NCBI GenBank assembly: GCA_049322915.1
Contig: JBMOPW010000013.1
Location: forward strand, 1 to 64,000
Direction of reading: 5' to 3'
Origin: Candidatus Zhuqueibacterota bacterium
GTDB taxonomy: Bacteria > Zhuqueibacterota > Zhuqueibacteria > Thermofontimicrobiales > Thermofontimicrobiaceae
DNA: 64,000 nt
Under the pieces are notes generated by a model, which saw only the letters and a program-made list of their open reading frames with translations, was not told the origin of the DNA and made no database searches. Position numbers and translations under genes: made by a program. Of the stretch, positions 10,370-61,488 are shown piece by piece; the stretch's first letter is position 1, and every line of letters starts with the position of its first letter.

Positions 10370-11335
10370 ATGAATCTGTTTTTCCGAATTCGGTCCCGGC
10401 TCACCCGGCTCTGGCTCGAATCCGTCGCGCCCTTGCGACTCAAACTGGTCGATATCAACTGCCTCGGCTATCCGGGCCTCATCGCGGTGCTTTTGCTTTT
10501 CTTCCACGACACAGTGGACAATTGGGCAACTTTTATCCTGCTGCATTTTTTGGTCATTGCGCTGATACTCTTCATTGTCCGGCAGGGCGAACGCCAGCCG
10601 AACCGGCAGATGTTCGTATTTTTGCGCACGTTTTATCCCATCGCTGTCCTGGCGTTCTGCTGGAGTGAAATCGGTGCGACCAGCCGCATGTTCTTCAGTG
10701 ATTATTGGGCGACCGAGGCCATCATTTCTCTGGACAGGCTCGTCTTCGGCGTCTCTCCCACTGCATGGTTCCAGCAATTTTACCGTCCCTGGCTGGACGA
10801 GTTGATGAACCTGTTCTATTCCGGATTTTTTTTGTTCATGCCCGTCGTATCACTCACCCTGTATTTTCAGGACAGAAAACAGGATGCCCTGGCGGCCTTC
10901 TCCCTGGGCACTTTCATTCACCTGTCCAACTTCATGTTATTCCGACTCTTCCCGACCCTGGCGCCATTCATGACCGAGTCCATCGCTTCATCCCATCCCC
11001 AGCAATACACCGGCTACCTCTTCGCTGAAATCACCCGCATCACTCAGTCCCATGGCGCACAGCCCGGCGGCACATTTCCTTCGGTGCATGTCTCCACGGC
11101 CATTGGCTGGGCGCTGATCGCGTTTCATTTTGAGAGAAGGTGGGGCTTTTTCCTGATCCCGGCGGCGATCGGCGTGGCAATTTCCACGGTCTACCTGGGC
11201 TATCACCACGCCCTGGACGCCGTGTTCGGTTTCCTCTGGGGGATACTCGCTTTCCTGATTGCGCTGAAAATTTTAAAGCGAAGAAACGAGGATCGGCCGA
11301 GTGAAACGCCCTCCGATTTCCCTGCCGGCGCATAA
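10370..11335 (+). CDS. PAP2 superfamily membrane phosphoesterase/phosphotransferase (Aur1/IPC-synthase-like)
   Basis: FPSVH and STVYLGYHHALD motifs; LDxLxFG segment; multi-TM. Confidence 0.82.
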   Translation: MNLFFRIRSRLTRLWLESVAPLRLKLVDINCLGYPGLIAVLLLFFHDTVDNWATFILLHFLVIALILFIVRQGERQPNRQMFVFLRTFYPIAVLAFCWSEIGATSRMFFSDYWATEAIISLDRLVFGVSPTAWFQQFYRPWLDELMNLFYSGFFLFMPVVSLTLYFQDRKQDALAAFSLGTFIHLSNFMLFRLFPTLAPFMTESIASSHPQQYTGYLFAEITRITQSHGAQPGGTFPSVHVSTAIGWALIAFHFERRWGFFLIPAAIGVAISTVYLGYHHALDAVFGFLWGILAFLIALKILKRRNEDRPSETPSDFPAGA

Positions 11336-11454
11336 AAAAAGATGAGAACAAAAACCGGATTGGAGTGTTAAATCTGGTGATTCGTTTCACCGTGTCCATC
11401 AGGCGCATCGCAGCGGCGCGGGCAATTTGTGTTTGTTCACTGCACATGATGAAT

Positions 11455-11585
11455 GTAACCACTCCGGTTCAAAGTTCAATGGTTCCCGGTTCAGGGTTTG
11501 TGAGAATCAAGATTGAATAATATGAGGAACGTAAGGTCATTCACGCTGACCCTTGAACACTGAATCTGACAACCTGAATAGCAAC
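11455..11585. repeat. GTAAC-ended palindromic repeat family C (GGTTCA/TGAAC 7-mer arms)
   Basis: GTAACC..GGTTCAA AGTTCAA TGGTTCC CGGTTCA GGG left arm; CCTTGAACACTGAA..CTGAATAGCAAC right arm; resembles 54435-54582. Confidence 0.55.
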
Positions 11586-11634
11586 CGAAATTTTGACAAA
11601 AGTCTTCTCACACGTCAGCATGCAGAGGTAATTC

Positions 11635-13194
11635 ATGGAAACAAAAATTTCAACCGGCCTGAAGGTATTCGACAATTTACTACCGACTATCAAAAATTTC
11701 CTAGCCAAAGACCAGGTCACCTATACCATCGATGGCGAGCGCGTGCACGGCTATCGCAGCCCGGATTGCAACGCCATCTGGATTCGCGACCACTCGGATA
11801 TACTCCGCGGCGCCCGCTATTTTGAGCGAGACATGCTCAGCGGCGCTGCTCATTTTGCCTCGACCCAACTGGCCAATGGCTCGCTGATGGATTTCGTCTC
11901 CTGCGCCATGGATCGTGAGAATTGGACCAAGTACGTCCGCGTCCCGGTGGAGGCCGATGTGGAATACCGATTTGTGAAGGCATTGTACCTGGGCTGGCAA
12001 GCTACCGGCGATTCCGCCTGGGTGGAGAAAATGCTGCCTCACGCGGAGCGCGCATTGGGCTATACCATGAATCACCCCTGGCGCTGGGCCAGCGATTACG
12101 GTCTGGTGAAACGCGCCTTCACCATTGACACCTGGGACTTCGACTATGTCGGGCCGAACCAGCCCTGGCTGAATTTTCAGATCAGCGAGCAGACCCATTG
12201 GGGCATCTTTCACGGGGACAATTCCGGTCTCTACGAAGCCTGTTCACTGCTGGCGCGACTCTACAATTTCCTGGGTAACGACGCAAAAGCACAGCTATGG
12301 GCTGACATTGCCAGCGGCATAAGAGAACGCGCCAATCGGCTGTGCTGGAACGGACAATTTTATACGCACCGCATTCCGCTCGATGGCTTTACCGTACCGA
12401 ATTTTGATGAATCCGCCCAGTTGTCGCTGTCCAATCCCATGGCCATCAACCGCGGATTGGCGACTCACGAGATGGCGGTGAACATCATTCAGGAATACCA
12501 GCGACGCAGCGATCGCGCCTTTGCTGAATGGTTTTCCATCGATCCGCCTTTTCCCGCCGGCATGTTCGGCGATCCCAAAATCATCGCAGGCGCGTATATC
12601 AATGGCGGCATTTTCCCGCTTGTCGGCGGCGAACTGGCGCGGGCTGCATTCGAGCACGGCTTCGAAAAATACGCTGCCGAAACCCTCATCAAATACGGTA
12701 AAATGATCGAGCAATCCGGCGAGACATTCCTCTGGTACTTCCCGGATGGGAGACCCTCCTCCGTAGAGACGAGCACCAGTCCGGAAGCCACGCCAACGGA
12801 CGGCTGGGGTTCATCGGCCATGCTGTACGCGTTCATCGAAGGTCTGGCTGGCGTGGTGGATCAATCCTGTCTGTTCAGGGAGGTGCGCCTTTCACCGCGC
12901 TGGGTGGCTGCCGGATTGACCCGGGCCACGGTTCAGGTGGGATATGGCGCCGGCGACTCCGGCATTGGCTACGAGTTCGAATGGCGCCCGGCCGAAAAAC
13001 GAATCGATGTGAAACTGGCTGGGAAATCGCGCGTGCGGTTTCACCTGCTGCTGCCGGCAGGAAGCCGCGCTGCCACGCTGAAAATTTCGGGACGGCCGGC
13101 GGATTTTGTCGTCAGCACCGTCGGCGAGAGCCATTACTCCGATTTCGCATTGGAGTTAGCCGGACAGGCGGAGGTCGAACTTCATTTAAAATGA
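11635..13194 (+). CDS. uncharacterised six-hairpin glycosidase-like protein
   Basis: WIRD motif, acidic VEADVE and DTWDFD motifs, C-terminal beta domain; GAGGT RBS. Confidence 0.65.
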   Translation: METKISTGLKVFDNLLPTIKNFLAKDQVTYTIDGERVHGYRSPDCNAIWIRDHSDILRGARYFERDMLSGAAHFASTQLANGSLMDFVSCAMDRENWTKYVRVPVEADVEYRFVKALYLGWQATGDSAWVEKMLPHAERALGYTMNHPWRWASDYGLVKRAFTIDTWDFDYVGPNQPWLNFQISEQTHWGIFHGDNSGLYEACSLLARLYNFLGNDAKAQLWADIASGIRERANRLCWNGQFYTHRIPLDGFTVPNFDESAQLSLSNPMAINRGLATHEMAVNIIQEYQRRSDRAFAEWFSIDPPFPAGMFGDPKIIAGAYINGGIFPLVGGELARAAFEHGFEKYAAETLIKYGKMIEQSGETFLWYFPDGRPSSVETSTSPEATPTDGWGSSAMLYAFIEGLAGVVDQSCLFREVRLSPRWVAAGLTRATVQVGYGAGDSGIGYEFEWRPAEKRIDVKLAGKSRVRFHLLLPAGSRAATLKISGRPADFVVSTVGESHYSDFALELAGQAEVELHLK

Positions 13195-51643: not shown

Positions 51644-52708
51644 TCAGCGAAGGCTGAATCCCAGACCGGGAGCGTCATGGGGATAGAGCGTACCATCTTT
51701 GAGAATCACAGCGCCGGCAGCCGGATCGTCCACGAGATCAAAATGGCCATCCAGGTCAGCGCAGACCACATTGGGCCGGGCCAGCGCAAAGTGCAAGCCG
51801 GCAGCAATGGCCAGCGCGGACTCATCCATGCAGCCGACCATGCTGGTCATCCCGGCCGCGCGCGCCACACTATCGACGTGCTGCGCCTCGGAAATTCCGC
51901 CCACTTTCATGAGTTTGATATTGATCATCGCCGCCCGCCTCCGGCACGCCAGGTCAAGCGCATCGCGCACCGTCATCAGACTCTCATCCGCCATGATCGG
52001 GACCGGTGAGGCTTCAGTGACCTGGCCCAGCAGCGCTGGATTTTCCCGGGCCGTGGGTTGTTCAATGAACTCCAAACCCGTTGACTGAGTTGCCGTTGCA
52101 AACAGGACGGCCTGTTCCACCGAAAAGCCCTGATTGGCATCGAACCGAAGTCCCACCTGCCGGCCAACGACCTCGCGCACCCGAAGGACGCGCTCAATAT
52201 CTCGGTCCACGTCAATGCCGCCTTTTATCTTCAGGGACGTGAATCCACGGGCCACAAACTCCCCGGCTTTACTGACAGTCTCCGGCAGGGGCAAAATGCC
52301 GATGGTGATGCTCGTCGGAATGCAGTCACGGAATCCGCCCAACATTTTCCAGACCGGCGCGCCGCAGGCTTTGCCCAGGAGATCGAACAGCGCCATATCC
52401 ATTGCCGCCAATGCCGACGGATGGCGCTCCATCGATGGCCTCAGCCGCCCGATGAGACTGGCGAACCGAAGCGGGTCCGCGCCGATGATCTGCGGCTTGA
52501 CCACGTCGTCCATCACCTGCATGACTGTCGCTTCGGTCTCTCCGGTGACCTCCAAATCCGGAGCGGCGCAGCCAAATCCACAGAGGCCGGTATCGGTTTC
52601 AATTTTCAGAAAGACATTCACCGTCGAATCGATCGTTTCGTAGGCAATGGTGTAGGGTTCTGCCAGACGCATAGCCACCGGCCATGCTTCCACTCGTTGT
52701 ATTTTCAT
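51644..52708 (-). CDS. enolase-superfamily dipeptide epimerase / N-acyl-amino-acid racemase (DgcA-like)
   Basis: KIK, FDANQG, EQP, ADES, NIKLMKVGG, GCMDE and DLDG. Confidence 0.9.
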   Translation of the reverse strand: MKIQRVEAWPVAMRLAEPYTIAYETIDSTVNVFLKIETDTGLCGFGCAAPDLEVTGETEATVMQVMDDVVKPQIIGADPLRFASLIGRLRPSMERHPSALAAMDMALFDLLGKACGAPVWKMLGGFRDCIPTSITIGILPLPETVSKAGEFVARGFTSLKIKGGIDVDRDIERVLRVREVVGRQVGLRFDANQGFSVEQAVLFATATQSTGLEFIEQPTARENPALLGQVTEASPVPIMADESLMTVRDALDLACRRRAAMINIKLMKVGGISEAQHVDSVARAAGMTSMVGCMDESALAIAAGLHFALARPNVVCADLDGHFDLVDDPAAGAVILKDGTLYPHDAPGLGFSLR

Positions 52709-52865
52709 CGCCCTGCCTCAAATGAAATGTTTATTTGGCCATCCTTTGATTGTCGGGGATACTCATTCCGGATGGTGCGCCTCGGCGACATTCGCGCCGG
52801 AAACATCTCCGGCGCGATCAGGCCTCATCTTTCCGGGTTCATGCTCCCTGCAGACAGGTCCCGGC

Positions 52866-53945
52866 CTACTTTTTCAAATACGTCTCGAGCGCGGCAATCA
52901 CCTTCCGGGGGCCATCCACAAGCACATCGCTGGCTACGCAGCCGGCGGCTTTTTCGATCTCCGCATAAATGGGAGCAAGGTCGTCTGGTTGCAACGACTC
53001 ATGATTGATGGTGATAGCGACGACCGGTTTCTCGGAGATAATTTCGATGGCCTTTATCTGTCTGTCCAGCGGATGAATGCGGTAGCCGGGAAAACCGTCG
53101 TAATCCACACGGGCTGGCGCGTGCTGCAATACCACGACATCAGGGCGGGCGGCCGCCAGAATTTCGTAGCCGCCGGGGTAAGCCGGATTCATCAGGCTGC
53201 CCTGGCCTTCGATGACAATGACGTCCGGTTTTTTATCGTTCCACGCCGACCACACGGCAAATTCGATTTCGCCGGAGACAAAATCATTGATGAGCGAATC
53301 CAGAATGAGCGAGTATTGCGCGCCCTGCATCCAGGCGGTCTGTCCAGTCCCGACCATTTCCGCAGTGTAGCCGGCGGCCCGAAATCCTTCCACCAGAATC
53401 CACGCTGTCGTCCGTTTGCCAATGGCGGAATCGGTGCCCAGCACAGCGATTTTCAACGATGTGACCTGTTCGATCCGGCCATCGAAGAAATGCAATTTGT
53501 CCCGCGTCGGTGTTTTTCGAACATCGCGGAGTGTGATTCGATGCTTAACCGCCAATCCGGAAATTTCAGGATCATCCGACAGAAAATCGTGGAGACCGCA
53601 ATCGACATTCAGTCCCAGTTCAATCGCTCGTTTCACATCCTGACGCGCCCGTGGATTGAGCCTGCCGCCATCCGGGGCAAGGCCAATGACCAGATGGGTG
53701 GCGCGGCGCTGCTGACGGGCGGCGTGTTCAACGGCCTCGGCTACATCGCCAATGATGGGTATATTTTTCGGCGCGCCGTCCAGCACCAGGCCAGCGTCTT
53801 TGCCGGCATAGGTGGAATCGACCACTGATAGCACCGAATAGCGGGCCGTCTTTCGAACCAGCCCGTGCGCCGTTTTGCCATTGGGCGTATTAAACGCATC
53901 CTGACAATAGACAATGGCATTTCCTTCCGGAAAATTTTTCATCAT
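52866..53945 (-). CDS. DUF1611 P-loop protein (DgcN-like)
   Basis: GKTAHGLVR, GLHDFL, GTDSAIGKRTT, TGQT, DFVSG and EGQGSL. Confidence 0.9.
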   Translation of the reverse strand: MMKNFPEGNAIVYCQDAFNTPNGKTAHGLVRKTARYSVLSVVDSTYAGKDAGLVLDGAPKNIPIIGDVAEAVEHAARQQRRATHLVIGLAPDGGRLNPRARQDVKRAIELGLNVDCGLHDFLSDDPEISGLAVKHRITLRDVRKTPTRDKLHFFDGRIEQVTSLKIAVLGTDSAIGKRTTAWILVEGFRAAGYTAEMVGTGQTAWMQGAQYSLILDSLINDFVSGEIEFAVWSAWNDKKPDVIVIEGQGSLMNPAYPGGYEILAAARPDVVVLQHAPARVDYDGFPGYRIHPLDRQIKAIEIISEKPVVAITINHESLQPDDLAPIYAEIEKAAGCVASDVLVDGPRKVIAALETYLKK

Positions 53946-54150
53946 TCAACTCCGTCTCAAAAAATAAGCCCGTCTGATTCTTCCCGACCGCACGTGTGCC
54001 AGTGGAAACGACCTCCTTCGCCACCTCCGGCCTCAGCTATTTGAATTGGCAATGTAATTGATTTATTTATAAATTTCAAGTCAATTTCTAAAATGAATAG
54101 TCTTGTACAAGCGTGTATAAAAAATTCAACACGCTAATGTATCGGCAGCA

Positions 54151-54166
54151 GACGGTCGCGACCGTC
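54151..54166. repeat. perfect 16-bp REP-like palindrome
   Basis: GACGGTCGCGACCGTC. Confidence 0.55.
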
Positions 54167-54222
54167 CTCTCCGCCTATGTCCAATAATAATCTATCGAAG
54201 TAGACTTCCAAACAAATCATAG

Positions 54223-54259
54223 AACGCAGATGACACTGATTACACGGATTTGCACGGAT
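54223..54259 (+). repeat. degenerate 9-nt tandem repeat
   Basis: AACGCAGAT GACACTGAT TACACGGAT T TGCACGGAT. Confidence 0.6.
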
Positions 54260-54434
54260 AAATTTTTTTTAAGTTAATAAACTGAAAAAATTTTCCTTCA
54301 AGTTGATTTCAAATTTTCCAGAAAATCGAGAACAAAATTCACGGTTTTCGGGTAGTAAAAATTTAGCCGACCGTAATTCTGTAAAATGGGTCCCGTAACG
54401 GGTAATTTAAAATCAGGATCAGAGGCGCAGGTTG

Positions 54435-54582
54435 GTAACCGTTCACAGGTTCATTGTTCAGGGTTCAAGGTTAATGATAACGGCCAGTTGATGACGGACT
54501 ATTTGAGCTCAAAAAATGTTTCTGGTGACTATATCCAAAACCCCAGCAGGGAACGCTGAACCCGGAACCTATGAACGGCTAC
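54435..54582. repeat. GTAAC-ended MITE-like repeat family C
   Basis: 18-bp terminal IR GTAACCGTTCACAGGTTC / GAACCTATGAACGGCTAC (16/18 match) with internal GGTTCA/TGAACC units. Confidence 0.7.
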
Positions 54583-54755
54583 GCAAGTTGAGGCGACATC
54601 TTTTGCAGGACACAGGAAAGGCAATCCAGAGTATTGCAGCGAATCGCCTAATCCAAACAGAACAATCGGAGTTGCCTTGTCGAATTCAGGAAGGCATCGG
54701 AGCAGCAGCGATCCGAAAACAGAATTGCGATGACGATTCTCGTTTCGAAAAAATG

Positions 54756-54794
54756 AAAATGGAAGAGCGGAAAGATCCTCAGCTCTTCCATTTT
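54756..54794. terminator. strong hairpin, probable terminator downstream of kamA
   Basis: AAAATGGAAGAGC / GCTCTTCCATTTT 13-bp inverted repeat. Confidence 0.6.
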
Positions 54795-55066
54795 GAAAGC
54801 GTGTTCGCCCGAATCACAAAATACGACCAGGGCGGCCTGGCAGTCGCTCTGAAAATTGAGCGCAATGGCCACATTCCCGGCTTGATTCCTAAAGTCAGGG
54901 AGAAGTTCCCGGCGCATCACGCCCATCGCTGATACAACGCCGCCACCGGGATATGCTGAAATGCACATCAAAGCAGATTCGGGCACCCGGGCAATCATTC
55001 TGCTGGACAGGGGTGAATTCGACGTCCTTGTCCAGCGCCAAGGTATTCGTCATTTCTGAACCGGAA

Positions 55067-56209
55067 TTACATCATCAGTGATTCATCAAACTCGAAGCAG
55101 GGTGTTTTCTCTTCACTTTCAACAATCTGCGGCACTAATTTTTCAGGTTTGGGATGTTTGCCATTCCTATTTTTCGTCTGCGCGTATCGATAAATTTTCC
55201 CTTTGTAATTCCGCAACACCACTTCTTCATCCGTGATTCTGACGACATATTCGGGCAGCAAGGGAATCTTGCCACCGCCGCCGGGGGAGTCGATCACAAA
55301 GTGCGGCACAGCCAAGCCAGACGTCCAGCCCCGAATGGCTTTGATGATCTCCAGCCCTTTCTCGACGCGGGTTCGGAAATGTTCGGTCCCATAAACATAA
55401 TCGGCCTGGTAAATATAATAAGGACGAACGCGCGCCAACAGCAGCTTTTGCATCAATTTTTTCATGACTTCCGGGTCATCGTTTACACCTTTCAGCAGCA
55501 CGGTCTGGCAGCCAAGCGGAATGCCGGCATCGACCAATTTCCCCAGAGCCTTGACGGCAATCGGCGTCAATTCATCCGGATGATTGAAGTGAACGTTCAT
55601 GTAAAGAGGGTGATATTTCTTGAGCATGTTGGTTAATTTTGTGGTAATCCTTTGTGGGAGGAAACAAGGGACACGTGTCCCAATGCGGATAATTTGGACA
55701 TGTGGGATACGCCTGAGCTTGTGAAGGATATACCGTAACCAATCATCGCTCAATAATAATGGGTCGCCTCCGGACATAATGACGTCTCGAATTTCAGGAT
55801 GCTGCTCAATATACTCGATCCCTTCATCAATAAACTTCGGGCTAATTTTGCTCGGATCGCCTACTTTTCGCTTACGGGTACAGAAACGACAGAACGATGC
55901 ACAATCATGGGAAACTAAAAATAAACAACGATCGGGATAACGGTGAACAATGCTTTTCACCGGGGAGTCTCTATCCTCGGACAATGGGTCAAATGACAGT
56001 CCATCATTGTCCAGCTCTTTCAAATCAGGAACAACCTGTTTATAAATCGGATCGCCTTTCGCTTTAATCAGCGACAGGTAATACGGATTAATTTTTATAT
56101 CAAATTCATGCTGTATCTTTTCTACTTCGGCTAAAGGTATATCGAATCTCTCTGAAATCTCTTTAGCGCTGGTCAAACTTTTTTGCAGAATCTTCTGCCA
56201 GGTTTCCAT
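55067..56209 (-). CDS. kamA: KamA-family radical SAM/PLP aminomutase (lysine 2,3-aminomutase type)
   Basis: HRYPDR, CASFCRFCTRKR, SGGDPL, RPYYIYQAD and FVIDSPGGGGKIP; AGGAGG RBS. Confidence 0.9.
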   Translation of the reverse strand: METWQKILQKSLTSAKEISERFDIPLAEVEKIQHEFDIKINPYYLSLIKAKGDPIYKQVVPDLKELDNDGLSFDPLSEDRDSPVKSIVHRYPDRCLFLVSHDCASFCRFCTRKRKVGDPSKISPKFIDEGIEYIEQHPEIRDVIMSGGDPLLLSDDWLRYILHKLRRIPHVQIIRIGTRVPCFLPQRITTKLTNMLKKYHPLYMNVHFNHPDELTPIAVKALGKLVDAGIPLGCQTVLLKGVNDDPEVMKKLMQKLLLARVRPYYIYQADYVYGTEHFRTRVEKGLEIIKAIRGWTSGLAVPHFVIDSPGGGGKIPLLPEYVVRITDEEVVLRNYKGKIYRYAQTKNRNGKHPKPEKLVPQIVESEEKTPCFEFDESLMM

Positions 56210-56297
56210 GGTAAAAACATACCTCCTACGTGTTTGTTATGGTTGTTAATTTGAACAGATGCGACAGGTCCTCATCCAATGGAGCGTGCCACATGTG

Positions 56298-56774
56298 TTA
56301 TAAACGTTTCACAAAAATCAAGCGATCATCGCCGATTCGATAAAAGTCCTTAATGCGGGCTTCCACGACATATCGGTTTCGAAGGTAAAAATCCTGTGTT
56401 GGTTTGTATTTCGGTTGAGATGACGTTTCAATAATGATCATACGGCCTTTGAGGCGTACAACTTCTTGCTCCGTGAAAATCAATAATTTTTTTCCAACCC
56501 CTTGATGCTGCACCACTGGTGAAACCGCGATCCAGTATAAATCAAATGTGCCTTCAGTGGCAGGTGTGGGGCCGTAACATACGTATCCAACAACCTCCTT
56601 CCGTGCATCTTCTGCAACGTAAATGATATAATCCTTTTGATTTTTGTTATTTAAAAAAATATCAACCAATTCCATCGCAACGGCGACTTCTTCTTCAGTG
56701 AACATGTCCGTGTGAACGAGAATCTGATGCACCGCCTCTCTATCCTGAGACGCCATTTTTCTAATCGTTACCAT
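56298..56774 (-). CDS. GNAT family N-acetyltransferase
   Basis: YVCYGPTP..FDLYWIAV..QHQGVGKKL, ETSS..Y..T..FY. Confidence 0.9.
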   Translation of the reverse strand: MVTIRKMASQDREAVHQILVHTDMFTEEEVAVAMELVDIFLNNKNQKDYIIYVAEDARKEVVGYVCYGPTPATEGTFDLYWIAVSPVVQHQGVGKKLLIFTEQEVVRLKGRMIIIETSSQPKYKPTQDFYLRNRYVVEARIKDFYRIGDDRLIFVKRL

Positions 56775-57807
56775 TCCATTTCCTTTTCAATGCTTCGTGA
56801 ATCAACAGATCGACAAACGATTCGTAACTAATTCCAGCAGCAGTCAATGCTTTGACATAACCCGCATCCGGCGAGATGTCCGGATTGGGATTGTATTCCA
56901 GCACAAAAATATTTTCATCATCATCGACGCGGGTATCGACGCGACCATAATCCCGGCCATTGATCGTCTGATACACTTGCAGCGCTACATCTTCGAGTCG
57001 TGCCCGGAGACTGTCGCTTATCTGAGCCGGACAAATCGCTGGCGTCTTTTGATAGAGCGGATGATCGGGCAGCCATTTGGCTTCGTAACTTGTGATATGA
57101 GGCGTCTCCTCACCCAGCGCCGCAAAACTGATCTCAGAAATGGCGATGACTCGCGCCGGACCATTCCCCAATACGCTGACATTGAATTCCCGGCCCTGAA
57201 TGTACTGCTCCACCAGAATGGGCTGGTTGTATTTTTTCAACAACGCTGTGACTCGCTTTTTCAACCCATTCAAATCATGAATAATCGCATCGCCATGCGT
57301 AATGCCCAGACTGGCATCCTCCCGTGACGGCTTTGCAATCAGCGGATACGAAAGTATTGTATCGCGGGGTGCTTCGGAATAGACCTGAAACTTTGGGGTT
57401 GGTATGTTCCTGGCTTCGAACAACTGCTTTGTGAGCACCTTGTCCTGCGCCAGCCCTAATGTCAACGGAGAATTTCCGGTATAGGGGATTTCTAACAATT
57501 CCCATACACCTGCAATAAACATCTCGAAGCGAGCTTTGCCCTGGTAACCTTCGCATAAATTAAAAATCAGGTCTGGGGAAACCTGATTTATCTCCTGGAA
57601 AATCTGGTCAAGGCTTTTAACCGGAAAGGAAATAGGTACGTGGCCGGATTCCAGGACAACTCGCTGAACAATTTCTGCTTCGTCCTTCACCGCAGCTTCA
57701 GAAATAAAATCCAAATCCTGATCCGCCTTTTGAATCGGCTCATTATAGGCAATAAGAATATTCAATTTCTTCGAATCAGACTTCATGTTATTCATCGGAC
57801 GAGTCAT
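56761..57807 (-). CDS. Ddl-like ATP-grasp ligase B
   Basis: FNLCEG, PYTG, KPSREDASLGI, EQYIQGRE, SYEAKW, RVD and EYNPNP; lacks the Ddl GGxSxE and LHG motifs. Confidence 0.88.
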   Translation of the reverse strand: MTRPMNNMKSDSKKLNILIAYNEPIQKADQDLDFISEAAVKDEAEIVQRVVLESGHVPISFPVKSLDQIFQEINQVSPDLIFNLCEGYQGKARFEMFIAGVWELLEIPYTGNSPLTLGLAQDKVLTKQLFEARNIPTPKFQVYSEAPRDTILSYPLIAKPSREDASLGITHGDAIIHDLNGLKKRVTALLKKYNQPILVEQYIQGREFNVSVLGNGPARVIAISEISFAALGEETPHITSYEAKWLPDHPLYQKTPAICPAQISDSLRARLEDVALQVYQTINGRDYGRVDTRVDDDENIFVLEYNPNPDISPDAGYVKALTAAGISYESFVDLLIHEALKRKWNGND

Positions 57808-57842
57808 CGCAAAAATTAATTTTTGCTCCTCATATTTAAAAA

Positions 57843-58886
57843 TTAAATACCATACCTTTTTCTGGCAAACTCAATGACCTTATTGATCATTGCGGTGTAA
57901 CTATAGCCTTTGGTTCGGGCCGCCTTGGGGAAACAGGAATTATCTTCCGGATTAGGCAAAATCCCCGGCAGCGGATTCAGCTCCAGGATGTGCGCCACAC
58001 CCTGATCATCCATACGGATGTCAATTCGGCACCAGTCCCTGATATGCATCACGCGGTAGGTATCCCGCACGACATCTTCGATATTTCGCTGCTGTAAATA
58101 GGTCAATGGCGCCGGGCATTTAAATATTTCAAGCGGCTTATCCGGCGTGTCCCAGATCCATTTTGCTTCATACGAATAAATCGGCCGAGCGCCTTCAGGC
58201 AGGTCGTCATAACTGATCGCGACGATGGGCAGCACGTCGACCTCTTTTCCATTGCCCCAGATGGCCACCGTATATTCATCTTTTTCTAAAAATTTCTCGA
58301 TCATCACCGGTTCATTGTATCTGGCGAGGATCTCTTCAATCTTCTTCCTCGCCTGCTTCGGGTCTTCCACTACCGAGTCATTGAAAATTCCTTTGCTGCT
58401 TCCCTCGGCAATGGGCTTGACAATCGCTGGAAAATAAAAATCATTCAACTCAATTTTTTGGAGTGGATGCAGCACCCGAAAAGGCGGTGTGGGAATCGAA
58501 TGGTAATTGAGTATTTCTTTGGTTCGGGCCTTATTCAGACAAATAGCCAGCGTCAAAGGATCCGATCCGGTGTACGGCAGTCCCAATCGCTCGCAAACCA
58601 GAGGGATGTACGACTCGCGAAAGTCGCCAAATAAACCTTCGGCTATATTGAACACCAGCTCCGGCCGAAGATTTTCCAGGGTGGCTGGCGCTGTATCATC
58701 CGCTTCAACGCTGAAAACTTCGTGCCCACCGCTTCGTATCGCATCCAACACCGAATTGATCGTGTCTACGCTATCACCCTCTGCGAAAAAATCAGGCGGA
58801 ATATCCGTGGTCTTTTGATAATGCTTTTCATATTCTTTGAGTAATCCAGTTTTGCTGCTGTACGCAACTGCTATTTTCATAGTCAC
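57843..58886 (-). CDS. Ddl-like ATP-grasp ligase A
   Basis: FNIAEG, PYTGSD, KPIAEGSSKGI, SYEAKW, RID and ELNPLPG; lacks the Ddl GGxSxE and LHG motifs; start GTG 58886 or ATG 58880. Confidence 0.88.
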   Translation of the reverse strand: MTMKIAVAYSSKTGLLKEYEKHYQKTTDIPPDFFAEGDSVDTINSVLDAIRSGGHEVFSVEADDTAPATLENLRPELVFNIAEGLFGDFRESYIPLVCERLGLPYTGSDPLTLAICLNKARTKEILNYHSIPTPPFRVLHPLQKIELNDFYFPAIVKPIAEGSSKGIFNDSVVEDPKQARKKIEEILARYNEPVMIEKFLEKDEYTVAIWGNGKEVDVLPIVAISYDDLPEGARPIYSYEAKWIWDTPDKPLEIFKCPAPLTYLQQRNIEDVVRDTYRVMHIRDWCRIDIRMDDQGVAHILELNPLPGILPNPEDNSCFPKAARTKGYSYTAMINKVIEFARKRYGI

Positions 58887-59019
58887 AATCTCAAATTCAA
58901 ACCATCGTGAGCTAATATAAAAAAATCTCTAACGCATAGAGATGTCCCTGGAAACATGTACACCGGATTCTGATTTCAAAACAATATTCACTGTTTATAA
59001 AAAATTGAACATGAATTTG

Positions 59020-59034
59020 GCAATAATTATGCCA
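59020..59034 (-). promoter_or_regulatory. sigma54 (-24/-12) promoter of the ATP-grasp/GNAT/kamA operon
   Basis: minus strand TGGCAT-AATTA-TTGC, with GG-N10-GC spacing. Confidence 0.75.
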
Positions 59035-59099
59035 CAATTTTCAAGTGCTAATTTTTCAATGAAGTAAGTCGGTTTTAATGATAATGCCAATTCTAAAAG

Positions 59100-59173
59100 C
59101 GAACTGACAATTCCGATTTTGGGGGATGAAGCCGAAAAATAGGGGCAGGAAATTGGAATTTAAAATTCCGATT
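59100..59173. promoter_or_regulatory. candidate upstream activator sites for the adjacent bEBP
   Basis: CGAACTGACAATTCCG (59100) and GGAATTTAAAATTCCG (59155), 55 bp apart; the second lies in the IR AATTGGAATT-TAA-AATTCCGATT. Confidence 0.45.
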
Positions 59174-60572
59174 ATTTAAAATCTTCTTTCAGGATTCCGT
59201 AGCGATGCATCAGTTTATTCAATTGCCTCTCTCCAATCCCGGCTTCTTTGGCGGTGAGATTGATTTTTCCATGATGCCGGGTGAGGAGGTCGATTATATA
59301 TTGTTTCTCCACCCGGTCGATTTCGCGCTGCCGAACCTGTGTCAAAGTCAATGTGCTTTCAGCAGCCATCACTTTGCTCTTCTTCTTGCCATTTTTGAAT
59401 AGCTCAGCCGGGAAGCTTTTCGGCATCAGAATAGAGGACGACTCCAAAATATAGGCGCGCTCGATTAAATTTTCCAGTTCCCGGATATTGCCGGGCCAGG
59501 CGTAACATTGAAACGCCTCCAGCACATCGGGATGAACGTCGTTGATGTGCTTGGCATTGGCTTTATTGAGTCGCTTCAAAAAATTTTCGACCAGGATGGG
59601 AATATCTTCAATCCGCTGCTCAAGCCGTGGCAGTTCGATGGGGAAAACATTGAGCCGATAAAACAGATCGTTTCTGAAGGTGCTCAATTCGACCATTTTC
59701 TGCAAATCGGAATTTGTGGCCGCCAGAATTCGGACGTCGGCTTTGATGACATTCTCTCCGCCCACTCGCTGAAATGTCCTATCCTGCAACACCTGCAGGA
59801 GCGCAATTTGCATCGAGGAGGAGATGGTGCCGATCTCATCCAGAAAAATGGTCCCGCCATGGGCTATTTCAAACTTGCCAAGCTTGCGTCGGATCGCTCC
59901 GGTGAAAGCGCCTTTCTCGTGGCCAAACAGCTCGCTCTCCAGCAATGACTCGATAATGCCGCCGCAATGAACGCTGATGTATTGCTTCTCACTGCGCTTG
60001 CTGTGCTGATGCAACAATCCGGCAATGACGCTTTTGCCTGTTCCTGTTTCGCCTGTGATCAATACTGTGCTTTCGGTCGGAGCGACCGCCCGAATTTTTG
60101 AAAATACTTCTTTCATCAGCGGGCTGTTGGAACGAAGCACGGATAAATACTCGCTGCGCCAGAACCGATCGCGCAGATAATTGAGCTCGGAATTCATGCG
60201 CGAGTATTCCTGAAGGCTATCCACGATGTATTTGATCTCATCTGGATTGAGGGGGTACATCAGGTAATTGCTGGCGCCGGCCTTCACGGCATTGACCGTG
60301 TCGCGAACCATTTGCGGCGTTGAGAGCACGATAATATCCACATCCGAGGTGCCTCGCCAGAATGGCAAAAACTGGACTTTGTAGTCCACGTCGCTCTTCG
60401 AGTTCTTCAATATCTCGATATCAATGAAAAGAAACTCATATCGCTTTTTAGAAAATAATTCTTCGCCGGCCTCAAGTGTCTGCGCGTAATCGATTTTATA
60501 TCCGGATTCAAAACATTTCTGGATAGTCTCCACTGCTTCCTGATTTGTTGTGGTGACGAGTATACTTTTCAT
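59172..60572 (-). CDS. sigma54-dependent transcriptional activator (NtrC-like) with atypical receiver
   Basis: GETGTGKS, ESELFGHEKGAFTGA, FLDEIG, WPGNIREL and a C-terminal Fis HTH. Confidence 0.93.
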   Translation of the reverse strand: MKSILVTTTNQEAVETIQKCFESGYKIDYAQTLEAGEELFSKKRYEFLFIDIEILKNSKSDVDYKVQFLPFWRGTSDVDIIVLSTPQMVRDTVNAVKAGASNYLMYPLNPDEIKYIVDSLQEYSRMNSELNYLRDRFWRSEYLSVLRSNSPLMKEVFSKIRAVAPTESTVLITGETGTGKSVIAGLLHQHSKRSEKQYISVHCGGIIESLLESELFGHEKGAFTGAIRRKLGKFEIAHGGTIFLDEIGTISSSMQIALLQVLQDRTFQRVGGENVIKADVRILAATNSDLQKMVELSTFRNDLFYRLNVFPIELPRLEQRIEDIPILVENFLKRLNKANAKHINDVHPDVLEAFQCYAWPGNIRELENLIERAYILESSSILMPKSFPAELFKNGKKKSKVMAAESTLTLTQVRQREIDRVEKQYIIDLLTRHHGKINLTAKEAGIGERQLNKLMHRYGILKEDFK

Positions 60573-60573
60573 C

Positions 60574-61488
60574 TCAGCCTTTGATTTTGTGTTGGACATA
60601 ATCAACAATATGGTTCACAATATGATTAACCACGGGTTCCGGCACACCATCCCGGTGGCTCGATTTCAATCGCATGTCGCAGATTTCGTTCACATAATCA
60701 ATCACAATAAATTTCCCATATTGATCGACTGCGATTTCAGTGGAAAAAAAGTTCAACTTGATTATCCTGGATATTTGCTCAACAATATGGAAGAGACTCT
60801 CCAACTGATACATTCTTACGGACTCCTGGCTCAGGACTTCGTAGATGTGGGTTGAATCATCCCACCAACAGCACTCGATATATCCGCAGCAATAGAACAC
60901 CCGAAACCAGAATCGTTTCTCATCCTTTTCGACCGGGTTTACCTTTTCCTGCAGCAGATATTTATCGGTCTCGTAGACCTGTCTGGCAATGAGAACGTCG
61001 TGCAGCGTCTCAGCGCCATTGACCACACCGATACCGCCGCCGGTGGTATTTGCTGGTTTAATGATGAACGGCCGCCCCAGATTTGCCAGATCTGCGATGG
61101 ATAATAAGACGTTTTTCGTTTTATTGAATGGCGGAATGATGATGGTGTGCGGCGTGACCAATCCATGTGCGATAAATTCCAAATGCATGGTCGCCTTATC
61201 AGACGCCCACTTCAATTGTTCCCATGAATCCAATACCGGCACGTGGTGATTCAGCATCAGTGTGTGGAGCTCCAGGAATTCCGTGGACGAATCAGAACCC
61301 CGATCATAAAAGAAGTGAAACTGCACCTCTCCCTTGCGAACTCGCTCAATGGTCTCCTGAAGATTAAACGCCTCCACCAGAAAGGTTGTCATGTTATATT
61401 TTTCATGGGCTGCGCGTTCAATCATGTGAATAAATTCTTTGTCATATTCCCAGTCGGTTGCCACACAAAAATCATAACACTGCGTCAT
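60574..61488 (-). CDS. uncharacterised ATP-grasp fold protein
   Basis: DKA.MH, PFIIKPA..GGG.GV, YLLQEKV, FSTEIA and IDYVN. Confidence 0.7.
   Translation of the reverse strand: MTQCYDFCVATDWEYDKEFIHMIERAAHEKYNMTTFLVEAFNLQETIERVRKGEVQFHFFYDRGSDSSTEFLELHTLMLNHHVPVLDSWEQLKWASDKATMHLEFIAHGLVTPHTIIIPPFNKTKNVLLSIADLANLGRPFIIKPANTTGGGIGVVNGAETLHDVLIARQVYETDKYLLQEKVNPVEKDEKRFWFRVFYCCGYIECCWWDDSTHIYEVLSQESVRMYQLESLFHIVEQISRIIKLNFFSTEIAVDQYGKFIVIDYVNEICDMRLKSSHRDGVPEPVVNHIVNHIVDYVQHKIKG

Follow-up and report, generated by a model that had tools for sequence, protein, structure and literature searches.

We analyzed a 64,000-nucleotide stretch of DNA from a Candidatus Zhuqueibacterota bacterium (positions 1 to 64,000 of contig JBMOPW010000013.1, forward strand; here called the window) and concentrated on a cassette of four genes, which encode two Ddl-like ATP-grasp ligases, a GNAT acetyltransferase and an aminomutase of the KamA family. 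A preliminary description, made from the sequence alone, had read these genes as an operon for an unknown peptide built from a beta-amino acid. The list of open reading frames (ORFs) confirmed the arrangement it gave, namely four close genes on one strand, here the minus strand, with an overlap between the second ligase gene and the acetyltransferase gene. In the order of transcription, the cassette contains the following genes.

57843-58886, minus strand: ligA, Ddl-like ATP-grasp ligase paralogue A, 347 amino acids from a GTG start; PF07478, E 1.4e-30
56761-57807, minus strand: ligB, Ddl-like ATP-grasp ligase paralogue B, 348 amino acids; PF07478, E 3.1e-31
56298-56774, minus strand: small GNAT acetyltransferase, 158 amino acids; PF13508 and PF00583
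55067-56209, minus strand: kamA, KamA-family aminomutase of the radical-SAM and pyridoxal phosphate (PLP) dependent, lysine 2,3-aminomutase type, 380 amino acids; TIGR00238, LAM_C and Radical_SAM

The ligA frame opens with GTG, and an ATG two codons further in (58880) is the probable start, giving a protein of 345 amino acids as in the homologues. The end of ligB and the start of the GNAT gene overlap by 14 nt, and the remaining intergenic gaps measure 35 and 88 nt. The GC content of the cassette is 46.0% vs 51.8% for the whole window, which is at about the 5th percentile among 3.8-kb windows. The impression that the cassette is richer in AT than its flanks held for the downstream side, where the genes have 56-60% GC, but hardly for the upstream 5 kb, whose 47.5% is scarcely above the cassette. 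A literature search found no paper describing the ligA-ligB-GNAT-kamA set, in agreement with the earlier remark that no characterized product was known. We lean slightly toward the view that the four genes form one operon for a small soluble amide that is derived from beta-lysine and lacks a prior description.

We surveyed related loci using one genome per species and obtained 80 loci with relatives of ligA (49-68% identity). The preliminary description had allowed that the four genes might not stay together in other genomes. They do stay together: 72 of the 80 loci have ligA, ligB, the GNAT gene and kamA, in this order. Of the remaining loci, six are truncated by the end of a contig, whereas L059 and L061 lack kamA despite more than 5 kb of flanking sequence. 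The record titles of the loci name Calditrichia, KSB1, Neomarinimicrobiota, Lentisphaerae, Aminicenantes, Ignavibacteria, Bacteroidota and 'Deltaproteobacteria'. Within the phylum of the window, ligA is present in 37 of 121 sampled genomes and is nearly all-or-none by family; the phylum tallies for ligA, and those for DS-family genes given below, take in one unpublished genome (G088).

Both ligases scored below the cut-offs of the models for D-alanine--D-alanine ligase (Ddl). With NF002378, the best Ddl model, LigA reached 172.9 bits and LigB 147.4 bits (cut-off 243), and with TIGR01205 they reached 139 and 127 bits, respectively, vs a cut-off of 245.65. Our alignment comprised 81 LigA and 70 LigB sequences, the Ddl of the window's own genome and E. 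coli DdlB (K-12 record), whose residue numbers we use. According to the DdlB literature, E15, H63 and Y216 form the site of the first D-alanine (D-Ala1), and other residues handle ATP, Mg and the acyl-phosphate. K97, K144, E180, E187, K215, R255, D257, E270 and N272 are invariant in all 81 LigA and all 70 LigB sequences. The D-Ala1 site is replaced throughout: position 15 carries alanine in 80 of 81 LigA and serine in 70 of 70 LigB sequences, and all 151 sequences have glutamate instead of H63 and tryptophan instead of Y216. LigA keeps S150, G276 and S281 and has a cysteine at position 282 and a four-residue insertion before S281. LigB has aspartate in place of G149 and of G276 (69 of 70 sequences), alanine at position 150 (64 of 70) and Ala-Gly in place of S281-L282. 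The two ligases thus share with Ddl and Van enzymes the ATP-grasp fold family and all residues for ATP, Mg and the transition state, and they differ from them in the replaced E15, H63 and Y216 and, in LigB, also in S150, G276, S281 and L282.

The alignment and the sub-cut-off scores agree with the initial observation that the ligases keep the ATP-grasp motifs and lack the D-Ala motifs of Ddl. Both are predicted to be catalytically intact ATP-grasp enzymes other than Ddl. They are not the housekeeping Ddl, because a canonical Ddl is encoded elsewhere in the genome (G000:C2:76775-77821; 361 bits vs the cut-off of 245.65), which retains GGKSVEHE, LHG, GSSVG and EAKY, including all three D-Ala1 residues. 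LigA and LigB are 33% identical to each other, and in a quick tree with SH-aLRT support they formed separate clades (95 for LigA, 98 for LigB) apart from the two Ddls (99). Among solved structures, the closest matches were without exception Ddl or Van enzymes, with E values of 1e-28 for LigA, 1e-22 for LigB and 1e-38 for the LigB profile. Natural LigA-LigB fusions occur as a 764-amino-acid ORF in L019 and as P0121 to P0123, the latter with the LigA-like half at the N-terminus; they argue only for joint action of the two ligases, for which the preliminary description had suggested a possible heterodimer. The acidic residues gained in the pockets of both enzymes would suit basic substrates, and LigA alone appears to retain the residues that, in Ddl, hold the carboxylate of the incoming nucleophile.

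Two other groups of Ddl-like proteins were encountered. Fusions of an S-adenosylmethionine-dependent methyltransferase with a Ddl-like ATP-grasp domain (P0133-P0240; 640-670 amino acids) make up a large, highly conserved family across metagenomes (68-88% identity), whose ATP-grasp domain is sister to LigB in the quick tree. None of its 80 metagenome loci (L089-L168) has KamA, GNAT, ligA, ligB, a pyruvoyl arginine decarboxylase (PvlArgDC) or a DHS gene nearby; the fusions stand alone and are therefore uninformative on the substrate of the ligases. An extra three-gene 'D-alanine-D-alanine ligase' cluster of ~4.1 kb, located near genomic islands, is reported to be shared by piezophilic Colwellia and other deep-sea bacteria (PMC7542103). 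That cluster could be a relative of the ligase set studied here.

KamA belongs to the family defined by TIGR00238 (290.3 bits, cut-off 199.2). Among the equivalog models, AblA (TIGR03820) gave the best score, which at 466.8 bits is under the cut-off of 525.4, followed by glutamate 2,3-aminomutase (414 bits) and arginine 2,3-aminomutase (341 bits). The preliminary description had left room for a KamA of the EpmB type; with EpmB (TIGR03821) we obtained 228.4 bits vs a cut-off of 369.3, which places the protein outside that group. KamA matched the lysine 2,3-aminomutase structure 2a5h with E 8e-112. Its CxxxCxxC motif also aligns with 2a5h, and its YQAD and VIDSPGGGGK align opposite YQCD and VVDAPGGGGK, so that the motifs and both acidic residues named in the preliminary description correspond to those of lysine 2,3-aminomutase. 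The two aspartates in 2a5h hold the epsilon-ammonium group of lysine. CxxxCxxC, both Asp motifs and the PLP lysine (GGGGK) show at least 97% conservation in 69 cassette KamAs. Judged by these scores and motifs, KamA is a lysine 2,3-aminomutase-like enzyme and not EpmB. Of the refuting conditions set in the preliminary description, none that sequence analysis could address went against its reading. We found no other KamA-family gene in the window's genome (completeness 96%), and no EpmA over the cut-off, the best genX match being a 529-amino-acid frame with 236 bits vs 286.9. The alpha subunit of lysine 5,6-aminomutase was not found in the genome by a search that had no positive control.

The GNAT protein matched PF13508 with 40 bits (cut-off 27) and PF00583 with 35.1 bits (cut-off 20.7), and the G.G..L acetyl-CoA motif is kept in 76 homologues. 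At 158 amino acids it had been noted as shorter than canonical AblB. It gave no match to the AblB model (TIGR03827; model length 266) at E ≤0.01, and no AblB was found elsewhere in the genome. Its best named match is RimI, with 33 bits vs a cut-off of 86. A solved structure of its family is PDB 2r7h, matched over nearly the full length with E 8e-36. This entry comes from structural genomics, and its title, 'putative D-alanine N-acetyltransferase of GNAT family', is a guess; we found no functional study of it.

The product that we favor is a small N-acetylated amide or peptide of beta-lysine, assembled in two successive ligations by the ATP-grasp enzymes. KamA would convert L-lysine to beta-lysine (3,6-diaminohexanoate). 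LigA and LigB, which are long diverged and non-redundant, would each form one amide bond via an acyl-phosphate. One of them would probably use a partner that bears a carboxylate, as suggested by S150, G276 and S281 of LigA, and the other probably a cationic partner free of a carboxylate, as suggested by Asp 149 and 276 and the loss of S281 and L282 in LigB. The small GNAT would acetylate a free amine. Transcription of the operon in this genome would start from a sigma-54 promoter under the control of an adjacent enhancer-binding protein, both described below. We infer beta-lysine as the substrate, the order of the steps and a small-molecule product, which may be osmolyte-like or polycation-like.

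We compared the cassette with known systems. A lysine aminomutase and an acetyltransferase make N-epsilon-acetyl-beta-lysine (Pfluger et al. 2003, cited in PMC3543383, where the available text describes ordinary ablAB). AblA/AblB of methanogens and some bacteria resemble the cassette in having a KamA of the lysine 2,3-aminomutase type beside an acetyltransferase; the cassette differs from them in its KamA (467 bits vs the AblA cut-off of 525), in its 158-amino-acid GNAT that is not AblB and in its two obligatory ATP-grasp ligases. The EpmB/EpmA system, which acts on EF-P, shares a KamA-family aminomutase, which there makes beta-lysine, but the cassette KamA scores 228 bits vs a cut-off of 369 on EpmB and EpmA is not found over its cut-off in the genome. 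The cassette works like the AblAB route without being a member of it, and it is neither Ddl nor EpmAB. In the biosynthesis of pyrrolysine, the radical-SAM lysine mutase PylB is combined with PylC, a Ddl-like ATP-grasp enzyme that joins the rearranged diamino acid to an amine. PylB is not a PLP enzyme of the KamA family, and the pyrrolysine route has one ligase and no GNAT. A solved PylC chain was not found among the best 60 of 69 PDB matches for the LigB profile. Ngg of the N-acetylglutaminylglutamine amide (NAGGN) pathway, considered together with AsnO, is like the cassette in combining an acetyltransferase with non-ribosomal peptide-bond activity to give a small N-acetylated peptide solute. 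The ligase part of Ngg, which we take to be of the ATP-grasp type, belongs to a single bifunctional protein that acts on glutamine, and the pathway lacks both an aminomutase and a Ddl-type ligase. According to the available part of PMC8070244, Ngg is responsible for the N-acetylation as well as for the peptide bond of N-acetylglutaminylglutamine, the precursor of the osmolyte. Among documented systems, Ngg is the closest functional precedent that we found.

Several points weigh against a product of this kind. The substrates are read from active-site residues by alignment, and gene linkage is all that ties beta-lysine to the active sites of the ligases. L059 and L061 have the ligases and the GNAT without an adjacent KamA, and no KamA-family gene was found in the L059 genome, the completeness of which is unknown. 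The patchy spread in the phylum (37 of 121 genomes) fits an accessory role without specifying which. Finally, a third ligase encoded upstream of the cassette is distantly RimK-like and the GNAT has RimI as its best named match, and both of these families modify ribosomal proteins, which leaves some room for a macromolecular target.

The first alternative concerns polyamines. It takes the product to be either beta-lysine conjugated to a polyamine-type base (such as agmatine or homospermidine) or a polycation of oligo-beta-lysine with polyamine-like action, and has the GNAT and a deacetylase control its charge; we regard this as unlikely. It draws on L061, where a tight operon without kamA (L061:3528-9837) encodes a SpeY-like DHS, a pyruvoyl arginine decarboxylase, a third ATP-grasp protein, LigA, LigB, a GNAT::methyltransferase and a second GNAT. 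The ligases in this polyamine operon keep the residues that are invariant in the family (2 conservative changes at 85 positions in LigA, none at 46 positions in LigB), and the L061 genome has an AblA-type KamA outside the operon (513 bits, 50% identity to the KamA of the window). The genome of the window has its own polyamine operon on another contig (G000:C36:19988-22492, equivalent to L088:3988-6492), with genes for PvlArgDC, a DHS-like protein of the SpeY type and an agmatinase of the arginase family. This gene set makes homospermidine, according to the available part of PMC13625781, in which ATP-grasp enzymes and aminomutases are not mentioned. The additional invariant acidic residues that line the pockets of the ligases also favor a polyamine-type partner. 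For the small acetylated amide of our main reading, support comes from a 596-amino-acid fusion of a GNAT with an HDAC-type domain resembling acetylpolyamine amidohydrolase. It is encoded downstream of kamA in nine loci (L008, L009, L010, L012, L013, L014, L016, L017 at 10724-12514, and L018), which fits turnover of an acetylated amine. This fusion is absent as such from the window's genome, which has a distant HDAC-domain gene (35% identical) elsewhere.

In the phylum of the window, a DS-family gene is present in 36 of 37 ligA-positive vs 51 of 84 ligA-negative genomes, an association among related genomes in a phylum where the gene is common. It did not hold in another class, the one to which G122 belongs: 22 of its 81 genomes have ligA and none of these 22 has a DS-family gene, while the four genomes with such a gene are all ligA-negative. 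Homospermidine made via SpeY as an obligatory partner is thus ruled out by the 0 of 22 ligA-positive genomes in this other class. The link between the cassette genes and a polyamine operon was seen in 1 of the 80 loci. The polyamine idea survives solely in its general form.

The cassette could instead modify a macromolecule. This could be a cell-wall precursor or a protein, such as a ribosomal or translation protein that receives a tail of beta-lysine or peptide in the manner of RimK, RimI and EpmAB. Beta-lysine is a known protein modification in the EpmAB/EF-P system, and relatives of Ddl usually supply peptidoglycan synthesis; both facts speak for this idea, as do the RimK and RimI likenesses mentioned above. 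However, the RimI and RimK scores are far under the cut-offs, the genome has no EpmA over the cut-off, and no conserved candidate target gene lies beside the cassette in the 80 loci, where recurrent neighbors are lineage-specific. A patchy distribution, even within one genus, would be unusual for a function in translation or the cell wall, and the amidohydrolase and the polyamine operon found in association with cassette genes suggest small amines. We consider modification of a macromolecule quite improbable. That the cassette simply makes N-epsilon-acetyl-beta-lysine is very improbable. In its favor, this compound is known to be made by a lysine aminomutase together with an acetyltransferase, and AblA is the best equivalog of KamA. 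Against it, the GNAT has no match to AblB, no AblB was found in the genome, the linkage and order of the ligases are no less strict than those of KamA and the GNAT (72 of 80 loci, with ligB overlapping the GNAT gene), and the ligase-GNAT trio persists without an adjacent KamA in L059 and L061.

We return to the small beta-lysine amide as the product of two ligations. In a more specific form, which we put forward tentatively as somewhat less likely than not, it would represent a new class of cellular cation or solute. LigA and LigB would couple beta-lysine to another beta-lysine molecule, to an amino acid or to a polyamine-type base, and the resulting amide would be N-acetylated. Its charge would be set by a dedicated system of acetylation and deacetylation, and a sigma-54 switch would control its synthesis in this lineage. 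The compound would be a widespread, so far undescribed primary metabolite of more than six phyla, mostly anaerobes. The strict conservation across phyla (LigA is 50-68% identical between Calditrichia, Aminicenantes and Ignavibacteria) means that the product is almost certainly needed in certain habitats. The routes of beta-lysine known to us lead to an osmolyte, the modification of EF-P, lysine fermentation and antibiotics; knowing the product would extend this metabolism by a further branch. It would also assign a function to the family of PDB 2r7h and to two large protein groups that now carry a wrong annotation as D-alanine--D-alanine ligase, and it might uncover, in bacteria of sediments and the subsurface, a new compatible solute or a new analogue of polyamines.

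The cassette has a wider context, overlooked in the preliminary description. Upstream of ligA lie a promoter motif and two further genes on the same strand.

59020-59034, minus strand: sigma-54-type -24/-12 promoter motif TGGCATAATTATTGC, 134 nt upstream of the ligA start
59172-60608, minus strand: sigma-54 enhancer-binding protein (EBP); PF00158 with 224 bits, AAA_lid_14 and HTH_8
60574-61488, minus strand: third ATP-grasp ligase, 304 amino acids, with weak matches to rimK_fam and LysX; the gene overlaps the EBP gene by 35 nt

In the window, these two genes and the four cassette genes (third ligase, EBP, ligA, ligB, GNAT and KamA) lie between the genes for a DUF1611 protein and CorA. All six are absent from G113, a genome of the same genus, where the distance from DUF1611 to CorA is 1.1 kb (on a 63.6-kb contig) vs 7.8 kb in the window. 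Being present or absent together, they have the behavior of a single accessory block. Read from gene order and motifs, the cassette is the core of this six-gene block, which a putative sigma-54 promoter would control.

The region between the EBP gene and ligA measures 285 nt and holds TGGCATAATTATTGC, a motif of the GG-N10-GC type that is one of three matches with at most one mismatch in the 64-kb window. A promoter motif is present upstream of ligA in 6 of 79 loci, namely in L006 (KSB1, the most syntenic locus, where it is near-identical), L007 and four Aminicenantes, and a near-match to the sigma-54 motif is present in G095, a genome of the same family. The EBP gene adjoins the cassette in 12 loci, and the protein is likely the regulator of the operon. 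Its receiver domain is degenerate (Response_reg 28.4 bits vs a cut-off of 30.2) and, as read from the sequence, has TT in place of the DD acidic pair and has lost the conserved lysine. No histidine kinase gene is adjacent to the EBP gene in the window, unlike in the Calditrichia-type loci, nine of which have a histidine kinase between the third ligase and the regulator, and in which the receiver is intact. The third ligase falls in uncharacterized ATP-grasp clusters of the ESM Atlas. Genes for its homologues lie no more than 7 kb from the cassette in 12 clustered loci (14 by tblastn) and adjoin it in L061 and L070.

The block is adjoined by a pair of genes (51644-53945) for the DUF1611 (DgcN-like) protein and a dipeptide/N-acyl-amino-acid epimerase. 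The same pair, also seen at L006:1614-3760 and L085:956-3098, directly precedes the genes for the third ligase and the EBP in L006 and in G095; in G095, the cassette is on one contig and the DUF1611-epimerase-ligase-EBP set on another. The pair is probably not part of the system, since it is present in G113 without the block.

The leader of ligA contains a weak AT-rich hairpin (58918-58943; ATCTCTA/TAGAGAT) followed by seven T residues, which is terminator-like and could be an attenuator. The folding of the 133-nt leader is no better than that of shuffled sequences (z = 0.31), and an Rfam scan of 53900-59300 gave no match to an RNA family.

The other edge of the block, downstream of kamA, is formed by a spacer.

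53946-55066, no strand assigned: 1.1-kb spacer, mostly dispersed genome-wide repeats, with no supported gene

Two ORFs in the spacer (54516-54932 on the plus strand and 54648-54998 on the minus strand) were rejected as genes, since neither Pfam nor NCBIfam gave a match for them and the 80 loci contain no relatives. One repeat (54089-54365) has up to 37 matches elsewhere in the genome, and a second one (54434-54584), an element of ~150 bp, has ~24 other matches in the genome with 80-89% identity. Short pieces of the spacer also match many contigs of G113. These repeats may be elements resembling miniature inverted-repeat transposable elements at the edge of the accessory block.

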